The notes beneath the pieces are model-generated. The model did not search any database. It was given only the letters and a program-made list of their open reading frames with translations, and was not told the DNA's origin. Both the position numbers and the translations under genes were made by a program. A stretch of 64,000 nt of DNA from an uncultured Anaerolineae bacterium (GTDB lineage Bacteria; Chloroflexota; Anaerolineae; Fen-1058), in assembly GCA_964398185.1 (NCBI GenBank), contig CAYNML010000022.1, positions 6,877 through 70,876 of the forward strand. Direction: 5' to 3'. This document shows positions 29,425-41,403 of this stretch, one piece after another. The first letter of the stretch is position 1. Each line of letters begins with the position of its first letter.

Positions 29425-29847
29425 ATGGGCATTGCTCGCACCTCACCCCCAGCATCTGCCATTAAACCCTTCCGCGTGCGGCGCAGCACGCAGGTGGCGC
29501 CGGCCTCGTTTTACTGGTGGCCGATCACCGAAGCCAAGATCCGGCGCGCGGCGCAGAAACTGGTCGATGAATTACAGCCGGAGAAGATCATTCTCTTTGG
29601 GTCGTTCGCTTACGGCCATCCGACCATTGATAGCGACGTCGATCTGTTGATCGTCATGCGCAGCAAGGCCCGGCCAGTCGATCGAATCCGACAAGCTTCA
29701 GCCGTGCTTGATCCGCGGCCGTTCCCAGTAGACATCATTGTGCGGACGCCGGCTGAAATTGCGGAGCGGCTTCGCGTCAAAGACTGCTTTATCGAAGAAA
29801 TTGTAACCAAAGGCAAAGTGCTTTATGAGCGCTCATCCCAGCGTTGA
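29425..29847 (+). CDS. nucleotidyltransferase-domain protein (MNT-type antitoxin)
   Basis: GGAGG RBS then ATG 29425. GSFAYG...DSDVDLLIV nucleotidyltransferase motif. The longer track ORF overlaps pccB and lacks an RBS. Confidence 0.75.
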   Translation: MGIARTSPPASAIKPFRVRRSTQVAPASFYWWPITEAKIRRAAQKLVDELQPEKIILFGSFAYGHPTIDSDVDLLIVMRSKARPVDRIRQASAVLDPRPFPVDIIVRTPAEIAERLRVKDCFIEEIVTKGKVLYERSSQR

Positions 29848-30214
29848 GTGGATTGAAAAGGCTGAGGGCAATTACGACAGTGCGCGGGTTTTGATGCGCC
29901 AGCGCAAGCACCTCGTGCCTGACGTCGTGTGCAATCAGTGTCAGCAGTGTGCGGAGAAATATCTCAAGGCGCTGTTGGTCAGACACGGCTTGAGCTTTCC
30001 CAAAACACATGATCTAACCCAACTCAAAAACCTGATTAAATCAATTGACGCCGACATACTCCTGATCGCGCCTGCGCTAGAGACACTGAATCCATACGGC
30101 ATCGATGTGCGTTATCCAGGATTGCAGGCAACCGCTGGCGATGCGCGTGAGGCCGTCGTTGCGATGAAGGCGGTGCGCAAATTCGCGCGCGCCAAACTGG
30201 GTCTCAAGCCGTAA
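29825..30214 (+). CDS. HEPN-domain protein (toxin partner of the MNT)
   Basis: Overlaps the MNT gene by 23 nt. HEPN helices with R...H motif region (...FPKTHDLTQL). Confidence 0.7.
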   Translation: MSAHPSVEWIEKAEGNYDSARVLMRQRKHLVPDVVCNQCQQCAEKYLKALLVRHGLSFPKTHDLTQLKNLIKSIDADILLIAPALETLNPYGIDVRYPGLQATAGDAREAVVAMKAVRKFARAKLGLKP

Positions 30215-32277: not shown

Positions 32278-32565
32278 ATGCACGTCATCTCGCGTAAAGC
32301 CCTGCGCCAGTTCTGGGAACGATACCCGGACAGCAAGACCGCTGTGGCGCGCTGGTTCAAGATTGTGCAGCAGACTAAATTCAGCAACTTTGCCGAGCTG
32401 CGTGCCGCGTTTCCGACGGCAGACAAAGTGGATGATTGGATTGTCTTCAATATTGGCGGCAACAAGTATCGTTTGATCGCGTCGGTGCATTTTAATCGGG
32501 GCAAGGTCTATATCCGCCAAGTTTTGACGCACGCCGAGTATGATCGAGGAGCCTGGAAACAATGA
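32278..32565 (+). CDS. higB: type II toxin HigB (RelE/ParE superfamily)
   Basis: MHVISRKALRQFWERYPDSK...IASVHFNRGKVYIRQVLTHAEYD is the HigB pattern. Toxin-first gene order. Confidence 0.8.
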   Translation: MHVISRKALRQFWERYPDSKTAVARWFKIVQQTKFSNFAELRAAFPTADKVDDWIVFNIGGNKYRLIASVHFNRGKVYIRQVLTHAEYDRGAWKQ

Positions 32566-32963
32566 GCGCTATGCTGACCACCGATCTGAAAACTCATTGG
32601 CCGACCATCCGCCCGTTGCTGACCATCCGCAACGAGCGTGAATACGATCGCGCCGTCAAACTACTGAATGAGCTGCTGGACGAGATCGGCGCGAATGAAC
32701 GCCATCCGCTGTATAGTTTCATGGACACGCTGGGTACACTGATTGAAGCCTACGAAGAAGAGCATCATCCGGTCCCAGCCAGCAGTGGGGCAGAGATGCT
32801 GCGTTACTTTATGGAAGAGCATGGCCTGTCGCAATCTGATCTAGCCGAGATCGGCTCGCAAGGTGTCGTTTCGGAAGTGCTGAATGGCAAGCGCGAACTG
32901 AACGTCCGGCAGGTGCGGGCACTGGCGAAGCGTTTTCACGTATCACCGGCCGTGTTTATTTAA
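32562..32963 (+). CDS. higA: HigA antitoxin (XRE-family HTH)
   Basis: 4-nt overlap with higB. C-terminal HTH LSQSDLAEIGSQGVVSEVLNGKRELNVRQVRALAKRFHVS. Confidence 0.8.
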   Translation: MSAMLTTDLKTHWPTIRPLLTIRNEREYDRAVKLLNELLDEIGANERHPLYSFMDTLGTLIEAYEEEHHPVPASSGAEMLRYFMEEHGLSQSDLAEIGSQGVVSEVLNGKRELNVRQVRALAKRFHVSPAVFI

Positions 32964-34719: not shown

Positions 34720-34781
34720 AGCGTAAAACGTGAAACGTGAAGCGTAATCGGCCCATTACGTTTTACGCCTTACGTTTTACG
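34720..34781. repeat. hairpin repeat family D (CGTAAAACGTGAAACG ... CGTTTTACG)
   Basis: gcgtaaaacgtgaaacgtgaagcgtaatcggcccattacgttttacgccttacgttttacg. Related copies at 61375-61427 and 62689-62745. Confidence 0.7.
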
Positions 34782-34798: not shown

Positions 34799-35203
34799 AT
34801 GGCCGTTAAACGAATCGATCACATTGCGGTTGTTGTAGACGACATCGACGCTTCACTCGCTTTCTGGCGTGATGCGCTGGGGATGGACATGACGCACCTC
34901 GAAGAAGTGAAGGAGCAGGAATCCATCGTGGCGTTTCTGCCCACGGGCGGCAGCGAGGTGGAACTGGTGAAGCCGACGACCGAGACCAGCGGCGTCGCCA
35001 AGTACCTGGCCAAGCGCGGCCCCGGCATGCATCACATCTGCCTCGAAGTGGACAACCTCGAAGCGATGCTGGCCGACATGAAGGCCAAAGGCGTGAAGCT
35101 GATCAACGAGACGCCGACCCTCGGCGCGGGCGGGAAGAAGATCGCCTTCATTCATCCGTCCAGCGCGAACGGGGTGCTGGTGGAGTTGTATCAGGACGCG
35201 TGA
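34799..35203 (+). CDS. methylmalonyl-CoA epimerase (VOC/glyoxalase-fold)
   Basis: 134 aa. IDHIAVVVDDID...HHICLEVDN...LVELYQ. Context with PCC and MCM. Confidence 0.8.
   Translation: MAVKRIDHIAVVVDDIDASLAFWRDALGMDMTHLEEVKEQESIVAFLPTGGSEVELVKPTTETSGVAKYLAKRGPGMHHICLEVDNLEAMLADMKAKGVKLINETPTLGAGGKKIAFIHPSSANGVLVELYQDA
35120..35203. repeat. direct repeat DR-L: authentic 3' end of the epimerase gene (84 bp), duplicated at 36252-36335
   Basis: 80/84 identity with 36252-36335. Confidence 0.8.
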
Positions 35204-35251
35204 ACGAAGGATGAGGGCGCGCCAGGCGGCCCACCGCTGCTTTTTCGTTAC

Positions 35252-35281
35252 TTGACGCGAATTGTTAAGCGGCGCTATACT
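35252..35281 (+). promoter_or_regulatory. sigma70-like promoter TTGACG-N18-TATACT for the MNT/HepT cassette
   Basis: Hexamers read directly. About 100 bp upstream of ATG 35380. Confidence 0.5.
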
Positions 35282-35379
35282 TAATTTCAGGCACAGTCCA
35301 TCGGTGAGTTGGCTTCGATTCCCACATCGAAACCTGAGTCCATGATTCATGGATCAAGATCAAGAGCGAGCAGCTGATC

Positions 35380-35742
35380 ATGTCCTGGACAGCCGAAGAA
35401 ATGCACATCTATCAAAAGACGGCGCTAAAACGCCACCAAGCCGCCAGACAGCAGGTGGCACAGCGCCGCGCACGGGCGTGGGAATTGGCACGGCAAGCGG
35501 CCGAGCGCCTGAAGACCGAGTTCGGCGTCGAGCGGGTGATGGCCTTTGGCTCATTGATACACGCCGATCGATTTACGGAATGGTCAGACGTCGATCTGGC
35601 AGTGTGGGGGCTGACCAATCACAATTGGTTACGGGCCTCAGCGGCGGTGGGCTACGGTGACATTGAAATCAACCTGGTTGATGTGCAGAGCTGCCAACCG
35701 GAGTTACTGGCCAGCATTGAGCGCGAAGGAGTGCCGCTATGA
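35380..35742 (+). CDS. nucleotidyltransferase (MNT-type) antitoxin
   Basis: MAFGSLIHADRFTEWSDVDLAVWG nucleotidyltransferase motif. Confidence 0.75.
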   Translation: MSWTAEEMHIYQKTALKRHQAARQQVAQRRARAWELARQAAERLKTEFGVERVMAFGSLIHADRFTEWSDVDLAVWGLTNHNWLRASAAVGYGDIEINLVDVQSCQPELLASIEREGVPL

Positions 35743-36239
35743 TTCCGCGTTATCGCTTGTTGGCGGCTCGCATTCGAGCCGAGTTGCCAACGTTGGAGCG
35801 CAGCGTCGCGCAAACCGAGGGCGCCTTATTGCGCGCCGAACGGCAACCGGCTGATCAATCTTACTTTGTCGCGGCGGTGGCCTTCGAACTACACAGTTTT
35901 TACGCCGGTCTGGAGCGCCTGTTTGAATTGATTGGCAGCGACGTCGAACAAAGCCGCCCCTCCGGCGCGGCGTGGCATCGTAACCTGCTGACGCAAATGG
36001 CGCTGCCCATCACTGACGTGCGCCCCGCCGTCATACAGACCGAGACACAGACTGCTCTATTGGAATATCTGGAATTTCGACATGTGGTGCGGCACATGTA
36101 CACGTTCAATCTGCGGATCGATCGCGTCACCGAGTTGGGGCGGAGCTTACGTCCGGCCTTTGATCTGGCCCGCCGTGATTTGTTGCGGTTCGCAGAATTC
36201 CTCGATGGGTTAGCGACCGCCGATGAGGCTGGCCTGTAA
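35739..36239 (+). CDS. HepT-like (DUF86/HEPN) RNase toxin
   Basis: 4-nt overlap with the MNT gene. R-X4-H-X-Y motif in FRHVVRHMY. Confidence 0.7.
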   Translation: MIPRYRLLAARIRAELPTLERSVAQTEGALLRAERQPADQSYFVAAVAFELHSFYAGLERLFELIGSDVEQSRPSGAAWHRNLLTQMALPITDVRPAVIQTETQTALLEYLEFRHVVRHMYTFNLRIDRVTELGRSLRPAFDLARRDLLRFAEFLDGLATADEAGL

Positions 36240-36251
36240 AGCACACGGTCA

Positions 36252-36335
36252 CTCGGCGCGGGCGGGAAGTAGATCGCGTTCATTCATCCGTCCAGCGCGA
36301 ACGGGGTGCTGGTGGAGTTGTATCAGAACGCTTGA
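36252..36335. repeat. direct repeat DR-R: decayed copy of the epimerase 3' end (contains an in-frame TAG)
   Basis: Four mismatches relative to 35120-35203, including AAG to TAG. Confidence 0.8.
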
Positions 36336-36508
36336 GAATCAGCGAGTCAGCGAATCAGCGAAGGGGAGAGGTTCCCTTTCGCTGATTTTTGTTTTGCTTT
36401 GCGACTCCAGACCGACATTGCCCATGTGCAGCAATTTCACACTGCCAAGAGGTTGAAAGTATAATAATTGCACTCGCTTTGAGCCTTTCGAAAAGGTGAT
36501 GGTTATTC

Positions 36509-37621
36509 ATGTCTACAGATCATTTCTTCGATGAAACCACTGAGCAGTCAACTGTTAAAACCGCGATAGTGTCGAAGTACTTTTGGGCTTGGGCAAAGGT
36601 AATAATGCCGACAGCCAAGAAAGGTCCTGGAAGAATTGCCTACATTGACTTGTTTGCTGGACCCGGTCGCTACAAGGACGGAACAAAATCCACGCCTGTA
36701 CTCATTTTGGAGAAGGCGATACAAGATGCGGATATGCGCCGAATGCTTGTTACGATGTTTAATGACAAAGACGAAGATAACTCACGTTCATTAGAGAAAG
36801 CAATCCGCGAGTTGCCGGGAATTGAAACACTAAAGCACCGGCCTCAAATCAGCACACAGGAAGTCGGTACTGAGCTCGTCAAAATGTTTGAGCGGATGCG
36901 GTTAGTGCCGACCCTGTTCTTTGTTGATCCTTGGGGATACAAGGGTCTGTCGCTTCGGTTGGTCAACTCGGTGTTAAAGGATTGGGGCTGTGACTGCATC
37001 TTTTTCTTTAACTACAATCGCATCAGCATGGGACTCAATAACGATCTGGTGCGCGAACACATGAATGCATTGTTTGGGCAGAAGCGCGCGGATGAATTGC
37101 GGTTAAGAATGGAGCCGCTTCAGCCACACGAACGTGAGCTGGTCATCGTGGAAGAAATCTGTCAAGCACTGAAAGAAATGGGCGGTGCATATGTCTTGCC
37201 GTTTCGCTTCAGGAACTATCTCGGCAGTAGAACAAGTCATCACTTGATATTTGTCAGCAAGCATCCCAAGGGCTACGAAATCATGAAAGAGATTATGGCC
37301 CAACTAAGTTCTTCTAGCGAGCAAGGAGTGCCCTCTTTTGAATATAGCCCTGCGGATAAGCGACAGCCGTTGTTGTTTGAATTGTCCCGCCCGTTGGACG
37401 ATTTGGAGGAAATGCTCGTCTCAGATTTCGCAGGTAAAACGTTGACGATGCAGCAGATCTACGAAAGTCATAACGTCGGTAGACCGTATATCAAACGGAA
37501 TTATAAAGATGTATTGATGAAGTTGGAGGCAAGTGGTACGATTAAAGTAGAACCGCATCGTAAAGGTACTTTTGGCGACAATGTCGTTGTCACATTTCCA
37601 CAAAAACGCGGGGGCAAGTAG
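36509..37621 (+). CDS. tcmP: TcmP-like (three-Cys-motif partner protein) family protein
   Basis: 370 aa. TATAAT and AAAAGGTGA upstream. Motifs DLFAGPGRY and [10 protein letters not shown]. Immediately followed by a three-Cys Gp37/Gp68-family gene, the defining context I recall for the TcmP family. Confidence 0.65.
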
Positions 37622-37623
37622 AA

Positions 37624-38355
37624 GTGGCCACCAAATCCAGCATCGAATGGACTGAATCCACCTGGAATCCATTAACGGGCTGCACCAAGATCAGCCCGGG
37701 CTGCAAGCATTGTTATGCTGAACGCATGGCAAAACGTCTACGCGCCATGGGCCAGCCCAACTACGCCAACGGCTTCAAGTTGACGCTGCATCCGCAAGCG
37801 CTGGAAATTCCGCTGGGCTGGAAGAAGCCGCAGATGATCTTCGTCAACTCCATGAGCGATCTCTTCCACAAAGATGTGCCGGTGGACTTCATTCAGCAAG
37901 TCTTTGATGTGATGCGCCGCGCCGACTGGCACCGGTTTCAAGTTCTCACCAAACGCGCTGAACGCTTGCTTGAAATCGACCCGCAAATTGAGTGGCCGTC
38001 CAACGTGTGGATGGGGGTCAGCGTCGAGAATCAGGACTACAAGTATCGCATCGAGTTGCTGCGGCAGACTCACGCCAAGATCAAGTTCCTCTCGCTGGAA
38101 CCGCTGTTGGGGCCACTGCCTCGCTTGAACTTGAAGGGCATCAACTGGGTCATCGTCGGGGGTGAATCGGGGCCGGGCGCACGGCCTTTGCGGGAAGAAT
38201 GGGTAATCGACATTCGCGATCAATGCAAAGCAAGGCACGTGCCGTTCTTCTTCAAGCAATGGGGCGGCGTGCAAAAGAAACGGGCCGGGCGATTGCTGCA
38301 AGGGGAAATCTACAGCCAGATGCCCGAACAAGATTGGATCGGCGCAACAGCTTGA
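37624..38355 (+). CDS. three-Cys-motif protein, phage Gp37/Gp68 (DUF5131) family
   Basis: 243 aa. N-terminus [20 protein letters not shown] (C-X6-C-X2-C). C-terminus [13 protein letters not shown]...FFFKQWGG. Confidence 0.7.
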
Positions 38356-38541
38356 ACTGCTGATTATCTTTTCTGTTTCGGATCAATAAGCGAGCGAATC
38401 GTGCTGACGATTCGCTCGCTCGTTGATTCATTGATTCGCTGATTTTGACTTCCCCTGTGGTACAATCGCTCCACTCAACTTGCCGCGAATCCTCCCGGAG
38501 GTTCTAAACCTCCGGGAGGCTCCAGGTCTTCAGGTGATTCA

Positions 38542-41403
38542 ATGGATTTGCTGCACGGACTCAATCCCCAGCAGGCGCGGGCAGTGGAAGCGCCCGACGG
38601 GCCGGTGCTGGTTCTCGCCGGACCCGGCTCGGGCAAGACACGCGTGCTCACACATCGCGTGGCGTATCTGGTCGAGGTGCGCAAGGTCTGGCCGCGCCAG
38701 ATCCTGGCGGTGACGTTTACGAACAAGGCCGCGCGCGAGATGCGCGAACGGCTCGCTAAGATCCTCGGCCCAACCCGATCGGGTGAGCTGACCCTCGGCA
38801 CGTTCCACGCCATCTGCGCGCGCTGGCTGCGCCGCGATGCGCCCGAGATTGGCCTGAGCCGCGACTTTGTGATCTTCGACGAGGACGATCAGCAGCAGGT
38901 GGTCAAGCGCGTGCTGGCCGAGTTGAACATCGACGACAAGAAGTACAAGCCCTCGGCGGTGCTCAACGCGATCTCGAATGCGAAAAACGAACTGATCACG
39001 CCCGACATCTATCAGCCTCCGACGTACTGGCACGAGATGATCCGCCGCATCTATCCGCGCTATCAGGAACTGCTGCGCCAGAGCAACGGCCTGGACTTCG
39101 ACGATCTGCTGCTGGAAGTGGTGCGCCTGTTCGATGCGCGCCCTGACATTCTATCGCGCTATCAGGATCGCTACCAGCACATCCTCGTCGACGAATTTCA
39201 AGATACCAACACGGTGCAGTATGCGTTGATCAGTCGCCTAGCGGCGAAGTCGCATAACATCTTCTGCGTGGGGGATGAAGATCAATGTTTGCCAGCGGGT
39301 ACGCTGGTGCAAACGCCCGATGGCGTAAAGCCGATTGAGCGTATTCGAGTAGGTGAGCAGGTCATTGCCGCCAGCGGCGCAGGTGATGTGCAGGCCGCAT
39401 TGGTCACCCATGTGGATAGCCGAGACTACGCTGGATACGCTGTTCGGCTGAAGACGCGCGACGGTTATGCAGTTTGCGCTACGCCCAATCATGTCATGTT
39501 TGCGCGAACCGCGACAGCCGCAAATGAATTGCGGCCTGCTAGGGAAAACAGGCTGAAGCCTGTTGCGGCGGCGGCGTCTGCGTCTGAAATCCGTTTTAAC
39601 GGATTTGATCCTATCAGACGCCGAATTCATTCGGCGGGCTTGCGCTCCTCCATGCTGCTGGACGAGAACGCAGCGAATGGCCAAGCGCTTGAAGTTGCGT
39701 GCGGCCCCTATTTGTGCGATTTTACCGATCAAATTCCAGCCCGGCGTTTCGAGCTGCTCCCCTTAAGCCATTTGCGCACCTCAATGCGCGTGGCTGTTTT
39801 TTACGAAGGGCAGATCGTGGAAGACGAAGTTGCCGAAGTTCAGTGGGAGCACTACCGCGGCAAGGTCTATGACCTTGAAGTAGCCGATGTGCATAACTAC
39901 CTGGCTGGAGGCGTCGTCGTTCATAACTCAATTTACAAGTGGCGCGGCGCGGACTTCCGCAACATCCAGCGTTTCCGCGAGCACAACCCCGGCCTGACGC
40001 AGATCGTCCTCGAAGAGAATTACCGCTCGACGCAGACCATCCTCGATGCGGCGCGCGGCGTGATCGACAAGAACACCCAACGGACGCGCAAGAACCTCTT
40101 CACGCAGCGCTCGGGTGGCACGGCGATCAGCGTCTACGAAGCTTACAATCAGGACGACGAAGCGCAGTACGTCGTCGATACGATTCAGCAGTTGATCAAA
40201 AAGCAGCAGTACAAGCTCTCCGATTTTGCCGTGTTCTATCGCACCAACGCCCAGTCCCGCGCGATTGAAGATACGTTCGTGCGGATGGGCGTGCCGTATC
40301 GGCTGGTGGGCGGCGTGCGCTTCTATTCGCGCCGAGAAATCAAGGACGTGCTGGCGTATCTGCGGCTGGTGCACAATCCGCACGACGCGGTGAGTCTGGC
40401 GCGCGTGATCAACGTGCCCGCGCGCGGCATCGGCGTCAAGACGCTGGAGGTGCTCGACGAAGCGTCACGCCGCAGCGGCCACTCGCCGTATCAACTCATT
40501 CACGACGCACCCAATCTCGATCAGGCCGTGCCGGGTCTCACAACGAAAGCCAGGCAGGCGCTGCTCGGCTTTGCGCAGTTGATCGATCGCTGGATCGATT
40601 CGCCGCAGCGGGCGCGCAGCGTGGCCGAGTTGATGGATCTCGTCCTGCGCGATTCCGGCTACTTCAAGCACGTCAACGACGGCACCGACGAAGGCCGCGA
40701 TCGCTGGGACAACATCAAGGAACTGCGCAACGTCGCCGCCGATTACACACAGGCGCTGGGCGACGATCCGCTGGCGCACTTCCTCGAAGATGTGGCGTTG
40801 GTGGCCGATGTCGATTCGCTGAAGGATCAGGTCGATGCGCCGGTGCTGATGACGCTGCACGCCGCAAAAGGGCTGGAATTCCCGATCGTTTTCATCACCG
40901 GCATGGAAGAAGGGCTGCTGCCGCACTCGCGTTCGCTGGAAGATCCCGAAGAGATGGCCGAGGAGCGCCGCCTGTGTTACGTGGGCATCACGCGCGCCAA
41001 AGATCGCGTCTTCCTGTCGTATGCCTTCCGCCGCACCATGTGGGGCAGCAGCGATGTCAGCACGCCGTCGCGTTTCTTGAGCGACATTCCCAAAGCGCTG
41101 GTCAGCGGATCGGCTTCGTTTGCCGATGTGCGACCGCGCGAGGCCGCCGCGATTCGTGCTTCGACGTGGGAGACGCCGTCCGGCGCGGCCGCCGGGGCCA
41201 AGCCCGCCCGATCGGTTGCCGCACCCTCGCGCGCTTTGCAGTTCCGCGCGGGGCAGCGCGTGAAACACGCCCAGTTCGGCGAAGGCATCGTGATCGAAAG
41301 CAAGCTCGATCGCAACGACGAAGAAGTGACGGTGGCCTTCAAGAAGGCCGGCATCAAGCGTCTGCTGGCGAGCTTTGCGAACTTGCAGAAATTACCTGGC
41401 TAA
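38542..41403 (+). CDS. pcrA: ATP-dependent DNA helicase PcrA/UvrD (SF1), interrupted by an in-frame intein (exteins 38542-39285 and 39928-41403)
   Basis: Motif I GPGSGKT, II HILVDEFQDTN, III VGDEDQ / SIYKWRGAD split by a 214-aa insert. The C-terminal Tudor-like domain is present. Confidence 0.9.
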   Translation: MDLLHGLNPQQARAVEAPDGPVLVLAGPGSGKTRVLTHRVAYLVEVRKVWPRQILAVTFTNKAAREMRERLAKILGPTRSGELTLGTFHAICARWLRRDAPEIGLSRDFVIFDEDDQQQVVKRVLAELNIDDKKYKPSAVLNAISNAKNELITPDIYQPPTYWHEMIRRIYPRYQELLRQSNGLDFDDLLLEVVRLFDARPDILSRYQDRYQHILVDEFQDTNTVQYALISRLAAKSHNIFCVGDEDQCLPAGTLVQTPDGVKPIERIRVGEQVIAASGAGDVQAALVTHVDSRDYAGYAVRLKTRDGYAVCATPNHVMFARTATAANELRPARENRLKPVAAAASASEIRFNGFDPIRRRIHSAGLRSSMLLDENAANGQALEVACGPYLCDFTDQIPARRFELLPLSHLRTSMRVAVFYEGQIVEDEVAEVQWEHYRGKVYDLEVADVHNYLAGGVVVHNSIYKWRGADFRNIQRFREHNPGLTQIVLEENYRSTQTILDAARGVIDKNTQRTRKNLFTQRSGGTAISVYEAYNQDDEAQYVVDTIQQLIKKQQYKLSDFAVFYRTNAQSRAIEDTFVRMGVPYRLVGGVRFYSRREIKDVLAYLRLVHNPHDAVSLARVINVPARGIGVKTLEVLDEASRRSGHSPYQLIHDAPNLDQAVPGLTTKARQALLGFAQLIDRWIDSPQRARSVAELMDLVLRDSGYFKHVNDGTDEGRDRWDNIKELRNVAADYTQALGDDPLAHFLEDVALVADVDSLKDQVDAPVLMTLHAAKGLEFPIVFITGMEEGLLPHSRSLEDPEEMAEERRLCYVGITRAKDRVFLSYAFRRTMWGSSDVSTPSRFLSDIPKALVSGSASFADVRPREAAAIRASTWETPSGAAAGAKPARSVAAPSRALQFRAGQRVKHAQFGEGIVIESKLDRNDEEVTVAFKKAGIKRLLASFANLQKLPG
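39286..39927 (+). mobile_element. mini-intein (214 aa) inserted in helicase motif III of PcrA
   Basis: Begins CLPAGTLVQTPDG (block A). Block B CATPNHVMF (TxxH). Ends VYDLEVADVHNYLAGGVVVHN followed by extein Ser. No LAGLIDADG/HNH endonuclease blocks seen. Confidence 0.8.

Follow-up and report, generated by a model that had tools for sequence, protein, structure and literature searches.

An optional TcmP/DUF5131 gene pair in a Chloroflexota terminator, with an exchangeable TcmP cassette, as a candidate nucleic-acid modification or defence module

The stretch analysed here, 64 kb of an Anaerolineales-like Chloroflexota genome (contig CAYNML010000022.1; referred to below as the window), contains an optional islet of approximately 2 kb that lies inside the terminator between a methylmalonyl-CoA epimerase gene and the helicase gene uvrD/pcrA. 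The islet comprises two genes, served by a promoter and a terminator of their own. The first gene encodes a protein of the TcmP family and the second a three-Cys protein of the DUF5131 (Gp37/Gp68) family. Comparison of the site among close relatives indicates that the DUF5131 gene has been resident there while the lineages diverged, and that the TcmP cassette has undergone several replacements. The islet is a typical member of the named TcmP/DUF5131 pair, the PADLOC candidates PDC-M30/M41, and it is plausible, though a little short of an even chance, that the pair forms a specificity-swappable nucleic-acid modification or defence module. Two things are new, namely the assignment of a fold and motifs to TcmP and a natural allelic series beside one DUF5131 gene at one chromosomal site. 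A literature search returned no paper giving DUF5131 or TcmP a function, as had been stated in an earlier reading of the window made from the sequence alone (the original prediction).

The window belongs to a 178-kb JGI metagenome contig, and exact look-ups gave only near-identical copies of it. Relatives for comparison came from two sources. Those from the genome collection, located via the mutase gene, were Anaerolineales and other Chloroflexota with mutases at most 76% identical in amino acid sequence (80 loci), and they were rejected as a source of empty sites because they are too distant. Closer relatives came from a metagenome scan with the epimerase, and in these the neighbouring genes are approximately 90% identical at the nucleotide level. 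The window, L093, L096, L173, L174 and L176 are filled alleles with a common layout. The hairpin that follows the epimerase gene is kept in the filled alleles L093, L094, L096 and L098, and similarity between alleles ends just past it; in L093 and L096 it returns only at the start of the DUF5131 gene (Table 1). Within the exchanged stretch the only sequence that the window has in common with L093 and L096 is the ribosome-binding stretch GCGGGGGC just upstream of DUF5131. The slot between these borders is occupied by TcmP genes of 261 aa (L093, L098), 448 aa (L096), 447 aa (L176) or 381 aa (L174, L175), giving at least five alleles at the same epimerase-side locus when that of the window is included. 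All pass the TIGR04474 model of the TcmP family (cutoff 53 bits), the window's protein with 227 bits (E=3.7e-67, residues 12-265), which bears out the predicted family assignment, and four intact alternative alleles with 135.8, 100.6, 90.3 and 55.5 bits. They are at most 25% identical to one another and to the window's protein, with the exception of the 448/447-aa pair (52%), and the alternative alleles have a GC content of 44-47%.

Across the alleles the neighbouring DUF5131 genes show protein identities of 92-95% and nucleotide identities of 87-91%, the latter being close to those of the flanking genes, with 89-92% (mutase), 90-96% (epimerase) and 90-91% (uvrD). Because DUF5131 diverges about like the chromosome while the slot holds deeply different TcmP alleles, TcmP is the swapped cassette. 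Most of the close relatives sampled have kept DUF5131, and judging from its high protein identity against a third-codon-position identity of 0.70-0.79, it is under purifying selection. The original prediction saw the islet as an insertion; its arrival in one recent event does not agree with this divergence, and the part exchanged recently is TcmP with its promoter.

Several of the slots show further differences. In L096, L173, L174 and L176 a conserved segment, GAACATATGTGCTATTATC..GCGGGGGC, lies approximately 45 nt upstream of DUF5131 and resembles a separate DUF5131 promoter; the window is without such a segment, and its DUF5131 gene starts after a gap of 2 nt from the TcmP stop, in the same orientation. 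The slot of L173 holds another, frameshifted TcmP variant behind a HARE-HTH + Mrr_cat restriction-endonuclease gene (L173:2386-4955) that is itself frameshifted, and the contig naming suggests a long-read assembly. The same HARE-HTH/Mrr-type gene begins the slot after the hairpin in L094. In L174, which has the 381-aa allele, two genes, one of 93 aa and one with a PIN domain (L174:5754-6448), stand after DUF5131 and before the right repeat copy (6492), and the right flank is rearranged, since the genes beyond that copy are not uvrD.

In every filled allele a copy of a short repeat stands on either side of the islet. In the window the two copies are identical over 12 nt; a 13-bp repeat had been described, and the repeat indeed exists, but the preceding base differs between the copies. 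With the two copies set in register, the earlier coordinates of the left copy are off by one base. As the original prediction proposed, the left copy is part of a terminator-like hairpin, the 17-bp-stem hairpin at 36352-36388, to which it contributes the 3' arm with the T-tail. A left copy, TCGCTGATTTTT, that completes a terminator of the epimerase gene is found in L093, L096, L173, L174 and L176. The right copy, of the TCGCTGATT type and located ahead of the uvrD promoter, departs at 1-3 of the 12 positions in other alleles and is degenerate in L093 (TGCGCTGATTCC).

Two empty alleles, L095 and L099, each have a single repeat copy at the place of the window's right copy. L099 is a clean empty site, in which the epimerase gene is followed by one hairpin (GAATCAGCGAATCG-cattac-CGATTCGCTGATTC-TTTTTT), the uvrD promoter TGTGGTACAAT and the start of uvrD, with the two ancestral terminator arms pairing as one hairpin. 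The repeat is the 3' arm of this ancestral terminator, doubled whenever the islet is present. A short inner hairpin, similar to the one at the 3' end of the islet, remains in the empty site of L095, whose empty state is for this reason probably a secondary loss. A simple prediction of the empty site as one repeat copy plus flanks was wrong because the loop of the hairpin is different in the true empty sites, and an exact search of the metagenome and genome collections for the predicted junction CCTTTCGCTGATTTTGACTTCCCC gave no match. The idea of an insertion that duplicated part of the terminator holds for the duplicated 3' arm; it holds neither for one recent insertion nor for a clean target-site duplication. 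The latter, transposon-like, explanation was rejected because the hairpin loop left of the left copy is unlike that of the empty sites, the right copy varies between alleles, and there is no recombinase gene (transposase or integrase) inside or beside the islet. A genome-wide REP-like repeat was also rejected, as TTCGCTGAT is essentially limited to the islet locus within the window: it has four copies in 64 kb against 0.78 expected, a number reached in 0 of 100 shuffles, and three of the four are located at this locus.

The optional character of the islet is supported by these empty sites in close relatives and by its absence from the more distant ones, where TcmP, DUF5131, MNT and HepT genes were found after mutase-epimerase at none of the 80 loci. 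The 370-aa type of pair also occurs at unrelated sites in other genomes (L180, L183 and the P0002 locus), where it is approximately 80% identical at the nucleotide level. The pair is preceded by a recurring promoter element, ATTTCA..AGTATAAT, not only in L180 and L183 but also in L093 and L094. The 3' hairpin of the islet is kept downstream of DUF5131 in L093 and L096 and is shared by L183, whose similarity to the window reaches 38443 despite its unrelated context. Homologues that are 67-74% identical are found in Acidobacteria, Planctomycetes, delta-proteobacteria and Chloroflexi, and this spread over phyla indicates horizontal transfer.

The TcmP protein is composed of a class-I SAM (S-adenosylmethionine) methyltransferase-like domain at approximately residues 1-266 and a C-terminal winged helix at residues 278-349, the latter matching the Pfam family GMT-wHTH (PF22560). 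The structure model, built from 101 diverse homologues, has a pLDDT of 96.5 and a pTM of 0.93 and contains a Rossmann-like methyltransferase fold. In this model D47-L-F-A-G51-P-G53 follows strand 1 (residues 43-47) as motif I, N85-D86 ends strand 2 (residues 80-85), and D140-P-W-G143-Y follows strand 4 (residues 135-139) in the place of motif IV. All sequence motifs of the original prediction, FFVDPWGY included, are found in the translations, and its suggestion that DLFAGPG and DPWGY resemble motifs I and IV agrees with both their placement and their conservation: K17, G51, G53 and G143 are invariant among the 101 homologues, and conservation is 90% or higher at D47, N85, D86, D140, P141 and Y144. 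K17 lies in an N-terminal helix and is invariant across 103 sequences, the divergent alleles included. The alleles of L093 and L096, approximately 20% identical to that of the window, keep K17, the Asp and Gly of motif I, the acidic residue (D/E) of strand 2 and the Asp of motif IV.

In its fold, and in the conserved positions for cofactor binding and catalysis, the modelled TcmP corresponds to a SAM-dependent exocyclic-amine methyltransferase, the nearest being RlmJ and Trm1. In RlmJ, the 23S rRNA m6A2030 methyltransferase, the catalytic Asp164 of the DPPY motif is held in position by a strictly conserved lysine, Lys18, in the motif X helix at the N-terminus, and the K18A and D164A variants are inactive (PMC3814359). 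In sequence, the invariant K17 and the D140 of TcmP repeat this Lys18-Asp164 pattern; the motif X lysine is K18 in RlmJ and K11 in T4 Dam. Identity to RlmJ and the Dam-type N6-adenine methyltransferases is only 13%, however, and TcmP has DPWGY where they have DPPY and differs further in its extra C-terminal winged helix and its radical-SAM-like partner. Trm1, the tRNA N2,N2-dimethylguanosine-26 methyltransferase, is 11% identical and differs in having a housekeeping role and no radical-SAM partner. There was no sequence-level relative of TcmP in the PDB, profile search included, and searches against solved structures with single sequences and profiles gave no usable match for either TcmP or DUF5131. 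A Foldseek search of viral predicted structures gave only weak, generic methyltransferase matches (TM at most 0.37).

The DUF5131 protein matches PF07505 over the whole profile (positions 1-243 of 243; E=1.2e-104, 349.5 bits against a gathering score of 28.9), in agreement with the predicted assignment, and phrog_2045 with 3.8e-98. Among 74 homologues C20-x6-C27-x2-C30 is invariant, as are GGESG and FFFKQWGG. It also matches TIGR04471 (Radical SAM mobile pair protein A) with 84 bits (E=1e-23), which is below the equivalog cutoff of 355 and makes it a relative of that family, not a member. DUF5131 is a listed radical-SAM subgroup that shares a megacluster with spore photoproduct lyase (PMC9477430). 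This lyase, which acts on DNA, also counts among its closest folds. It differs from the spore photoproduct lyase/MJ0683-like group in its Cys spacing and its much shorter length. We describe DUF5131 as a putative radical-SAM-superfamily-like barrel with an invariant C-x6-C-x2-C, and the earlier idea of a Cys-cluster protein is strengthened by the three invariant Cys, the subgroup listing and the TIGR04471 match.

The two proteins could also be explained as a housekeeping tRNA or rRNA modification pair, a methyltransferase with a radical-SAM enzyme, as in the wybutosine or Cfr/RlmN-type pathways. This explanation finds little support and we regard it as very improbable: the pair is at this locus in none of the 80 Anaerolineae-type genomes examined, close relatives have empty alleles, homologues of approximately 70% identity are scattered over phyla, and the allele replacement, the embedding in restriction operons and the low GC content speak against a core function.

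To place the pair among known defence candidates we compared both proteins with the PADLOC models. TcmP matches PDC-M30A with 83 bits and PDC-M41A with 26, and DUF5131 matches PDC-M41B with 413 bits and PDC-M30B with 400, the A and B genes being adjacent. In PADLOC, then, B proteins that are almost identical already come with A partners of two kinds, a pattern consistent with the swapping of alleles at the islet locus. Candidates of this sort were proposed for being embedded in known defence systems, and a 2026 survey describes validation as pending for most of them. In the literature searched, PDC-M30 was present in only two Pseudomonas surveys and PDC-M41 nowhere, and neither was among the experimentally tested candidates.

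The TcmP and DUF5131 genes are adjacent in all other loci examined, and embedding of the kind described for PADLOC candidates is likewise seen for this pair. In a Chloroflexi type I operon (L009) it lies between hsdS and hsdR, in a type III-like system between res-like and mod genes, and in the Gordonia phage ThankyouJordi between the integrase and the immunity repressor, in convergent orientation. At the islet locus itself the neighbours are MNT/HepT, a PIN-containing (VapBC-like) pair or an Mrr-type gene, and in Sinorhizobium meliloti a TcmP gene has been reported close to the defence gene Hna (PMC12445080). A link to defence had been proposed in the original prediction, and the type I and type III-like operons, the prophage immunity region and the PADLOC candidacy all agree with it. 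A system similar in arrangement is type I restriction-modification with an exchangeable HsdS, which likewise has one conserved and one replaceable component at a fixed locus. Unlike that system, the pair is without a nuclease, a helicase or a separate specificity subunit, and its variable part is the methyltransferase-like enzyme itself; searches of Pfam, NCBIfam and PADLOC models found no nuclease domain in either protein.

The slot between hsdS and hsdR bears on a second explanation, that the pair is an abortive-infection or sensor-effector system. The anticodon nuclease PrrC occupies the corresponding slot in the prr locus of E. coli. TcmP would sense a phage component or an inhibited neighbouring restriction system, DUF5131 would use radical chemistry to damage RNA or DNA of the host or the phage, and an arms race with phage triggers would vary TcmP. 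The occurrence of the pair in a prophage immunity region, the hypervariability of TcmP and its nearest folds, which belong to enzymes of rRNA and tRNA, would all be in keeping with such a system. However, the cofactor and catalytic positions of TcmP are kept even between alleles that are approximately 20% identical, which a pure sensor would not need, and we consider this putative system unlikely.

The neighbourhood of the islet could also suggest a selfish addiction module, similar to a toxin-antitoxin or restriction-modification system, that persists by post-segregational killing without a real role in defence. The same operon contains three toxin-antitoxin-like pairs (NTP_transf_2/HEPN, HigB/HTH_3 and Polbeta/HepT), L174 has a PIN-containing pair after DUF5131, and the islet is optional, with the 370-type pair in unrelated contexts. 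Yet neither TcmP nor DUF5131 gave a match to any known family of toxins or antitoxins, DUF5131 is retained by most close relatives sampled and under purifying selection, and repeated replacement of one partner alone is hard to square with a matched toxin and antidote. We regard an addiction module as quite improbable.

The reading that we prefer remains that of a specificity-swappable modification or defence module, for which the following mechanism can be envisaged. TcmP would pick a nucleic-acid target, most likely DNA, and methylate a base amine. DUF5131 would then apply the radical chemistry of an Fe-S cluster and SAM to the methylated or targeted nucleotide, and the product, a hypermodified base or a lesion, would mark self or disable invading DNA. 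DNA is suggested as the target by the fold likeness to spore photoproduct lyase and by the Gordonia phage Bakery, in which DUF5131 abuts a C5-cytosine DNA methyltransferase gene with one base shared at the stop/start junction. TcmP would act as the specificity subunit and be exchanged much like the specificity subunits of type I systems, and this would be why TcmP is the part that gets swapped. A more far-reaching version, in which the pair is a minimal immunity or epigenetic system of a new kind, with an exchangeable RlmJ/Dam-like methyltransferase setting the specificity, a non-canonical radical-SAM enzyme converting the base and cassette swaps re-programming the target, is tentative and on balance somewhat doubtful. 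The locus provides a natural experiment that makes the specificity-subunit idea directly testable: a single conserved DUF5131 is combined with five or more widely divergent TcmP alleles, and close relatives offer empty sites. If the idea is true, a chemistry would be assigned to an uncharacterised radical-SAM family, which is widespread (more than 8000 close homologues scored, and 181 phage genomes), and to two PADLOC candidate systems.

A number of observations weigh against this mechanism. The spacing C-x6-C-x2-C is not the canonical radical-SAM C-x3-C-x2-C, although variant spacings occur in accepted radical-SAM members, so the spacing does not exclude radical-SAM chemistry. Motif IV of TcmP is a D-P-x-G variant instead of DPPY, and in the 261-aa allele it is D-H-S-G. 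RlmJ and Trm1, the closest solved folds, act on RNA, not DNA. The pair is without a nuclease or other obvious restriction component, which makes defence by modification alone harder to explain, and several pairs are standalone among housekeeping genes. The literature searched contained no biochemical or phage-challenge data on the pair. Finally, one DUF5131 with partners at most 25% identical argues against a tight co-evolving complex; because one conserved DUF5131 serves such different partners, a sequential pathway, or contact via the conserved methyltransferase core, would fit better.

The original prediction proposed, as a hypothesis, that the islet is phage-derived, and support for this part of it is weak. 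Of 50,697 phage records only 5 contain TcmP, compared with 181 for DUF5131, and plasmids gave 7 TcmP matches, all distant. A decaying prophage remnant without current function, a poorly supported explanation that we consider extremely improbable, would account for the low GC content and for a DUF5131 family that is named for phage proteins and present in those 181 records. Against it, both reading frames are intact and accompanied by a promoter, a ribosome-binding site and a terminator, the DUF5131 protein identity exceeds its third-position identity as described above, there are no further phage genes near the islet, and TcmP is almost absent from phages.

The features of the islet are listed in Table 1. 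Both open reading frames are found at the coordinates that had been claimed for them, and the predicted TATAAT promoter and ribosome-binding site of the islet were both located. The low GC content of the islet was also predicted, at approximately 48% for TcmP and 53% for DUF5131 in surroundings of approximately 63%. The TcmP gene is indeed the lowest-GC 1113-nt stretch of the entire window (mean 0.609, sd 0.030), although the measured values differ somewhat from those figures, being 46.8% for TcmP, 56.3% for DUF5131, 60.9% for the window and 49.9% for the span 36391-38433. An Rfam scan of positions 35000-39000 gave no matches.

Table 1. Positions of the islet genes, signals, repeats and terminator parts in the window
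Feature	Position	Strand	Description
Ancestral epimerase terminator, left arm (TCAGCGA repeats)	36337-36361	+	Can pair with 38420-38444 at a distance of 2058 nt (25 nt, 84% complementary)
Epimerase terminator-like hairpin as now present	36352-36394	+	17-bp stem (hairpin 36352-36388), then T-run
Direct repeat, left copy TTCGCTGATTTT	36378-36389	+	12 nt exact
Exchangeable cassette (promoter and TcmP)	36395 to ~37622	+	Nucleotide similarity to L093/L096 lost at ~36394, back at 37623-37625 (DUF5131 start)
Sigma-70-like promoter TTCACA-18-TATAAT	36436-36465	+	11/12 positions match
Ribosome-binding site AAGGTGA	36493-36499	+	9 nt ahead of TcmP ATG
TcmP gene	36509-37621	+	ATG start, 370 aa
DUF5131 (Gp37/Gp68) three-Cys gene	37624-38355	+	GTG start, 243 aa
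Terminator-like hairpin, islet 3' end	38382-38427	+	21-nt arms, 90% complementary
Direct repeat, right copy TTCGCTGATTTT	38435-38446	+	3' arm and T-tail of ancestral terminator; uvrD promoter TGTGGTACAAT next

Other insertions and repeats are found near the islet. The MNT-like nucleotidyltransferase/HepT-like pair at 35380-36239 is missing from L093, L095, L096, L173, L174 and L176, and since it is absent from all close relatives it is a separate, more recent insertion. On both sides of it the 3' end of the epimerase gene is present as a 93-nt direct repeat (35111-35203 and 36243-36335, 91% identical). Further upstream, an NTP_transf_2/HEPN toxin-antitoxin-like pair (approximately 29425-30214) lies between the carboxyltransferase and biotin carboxylase genes of the propionyl-CoA carboxylase/mutase operon, and a HigB/HTH_3 toxin-antitoxin-like pair (approximately 32278-32963) lies ahead of the mutase gene and coincides with a dip in GC content to 0.52-0.57. 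Between the mutase and epimerase genes there is an inverted repeat with 30-nt arms at 34722-34781, with tandem TTACGTTTTACG units.

On the other side of the islet, the UvrD/PcrA helicase gene (38542-41403, 953 aa) contains an intein, as indicated by Hint and Intein_splicing matches; among the relatives, uvrD has an intein in L176 (934 aa) and is without one in L173 (653 aa). The uvrD leader contains a perfect palindrome at 38491-38519 with 13-nt arms (CCTCCCGGAGGTT / AACCTCCGGGAGG), which belongs to a 48-nt segment that is found in the window and L093 and is missing in L095 and L096.

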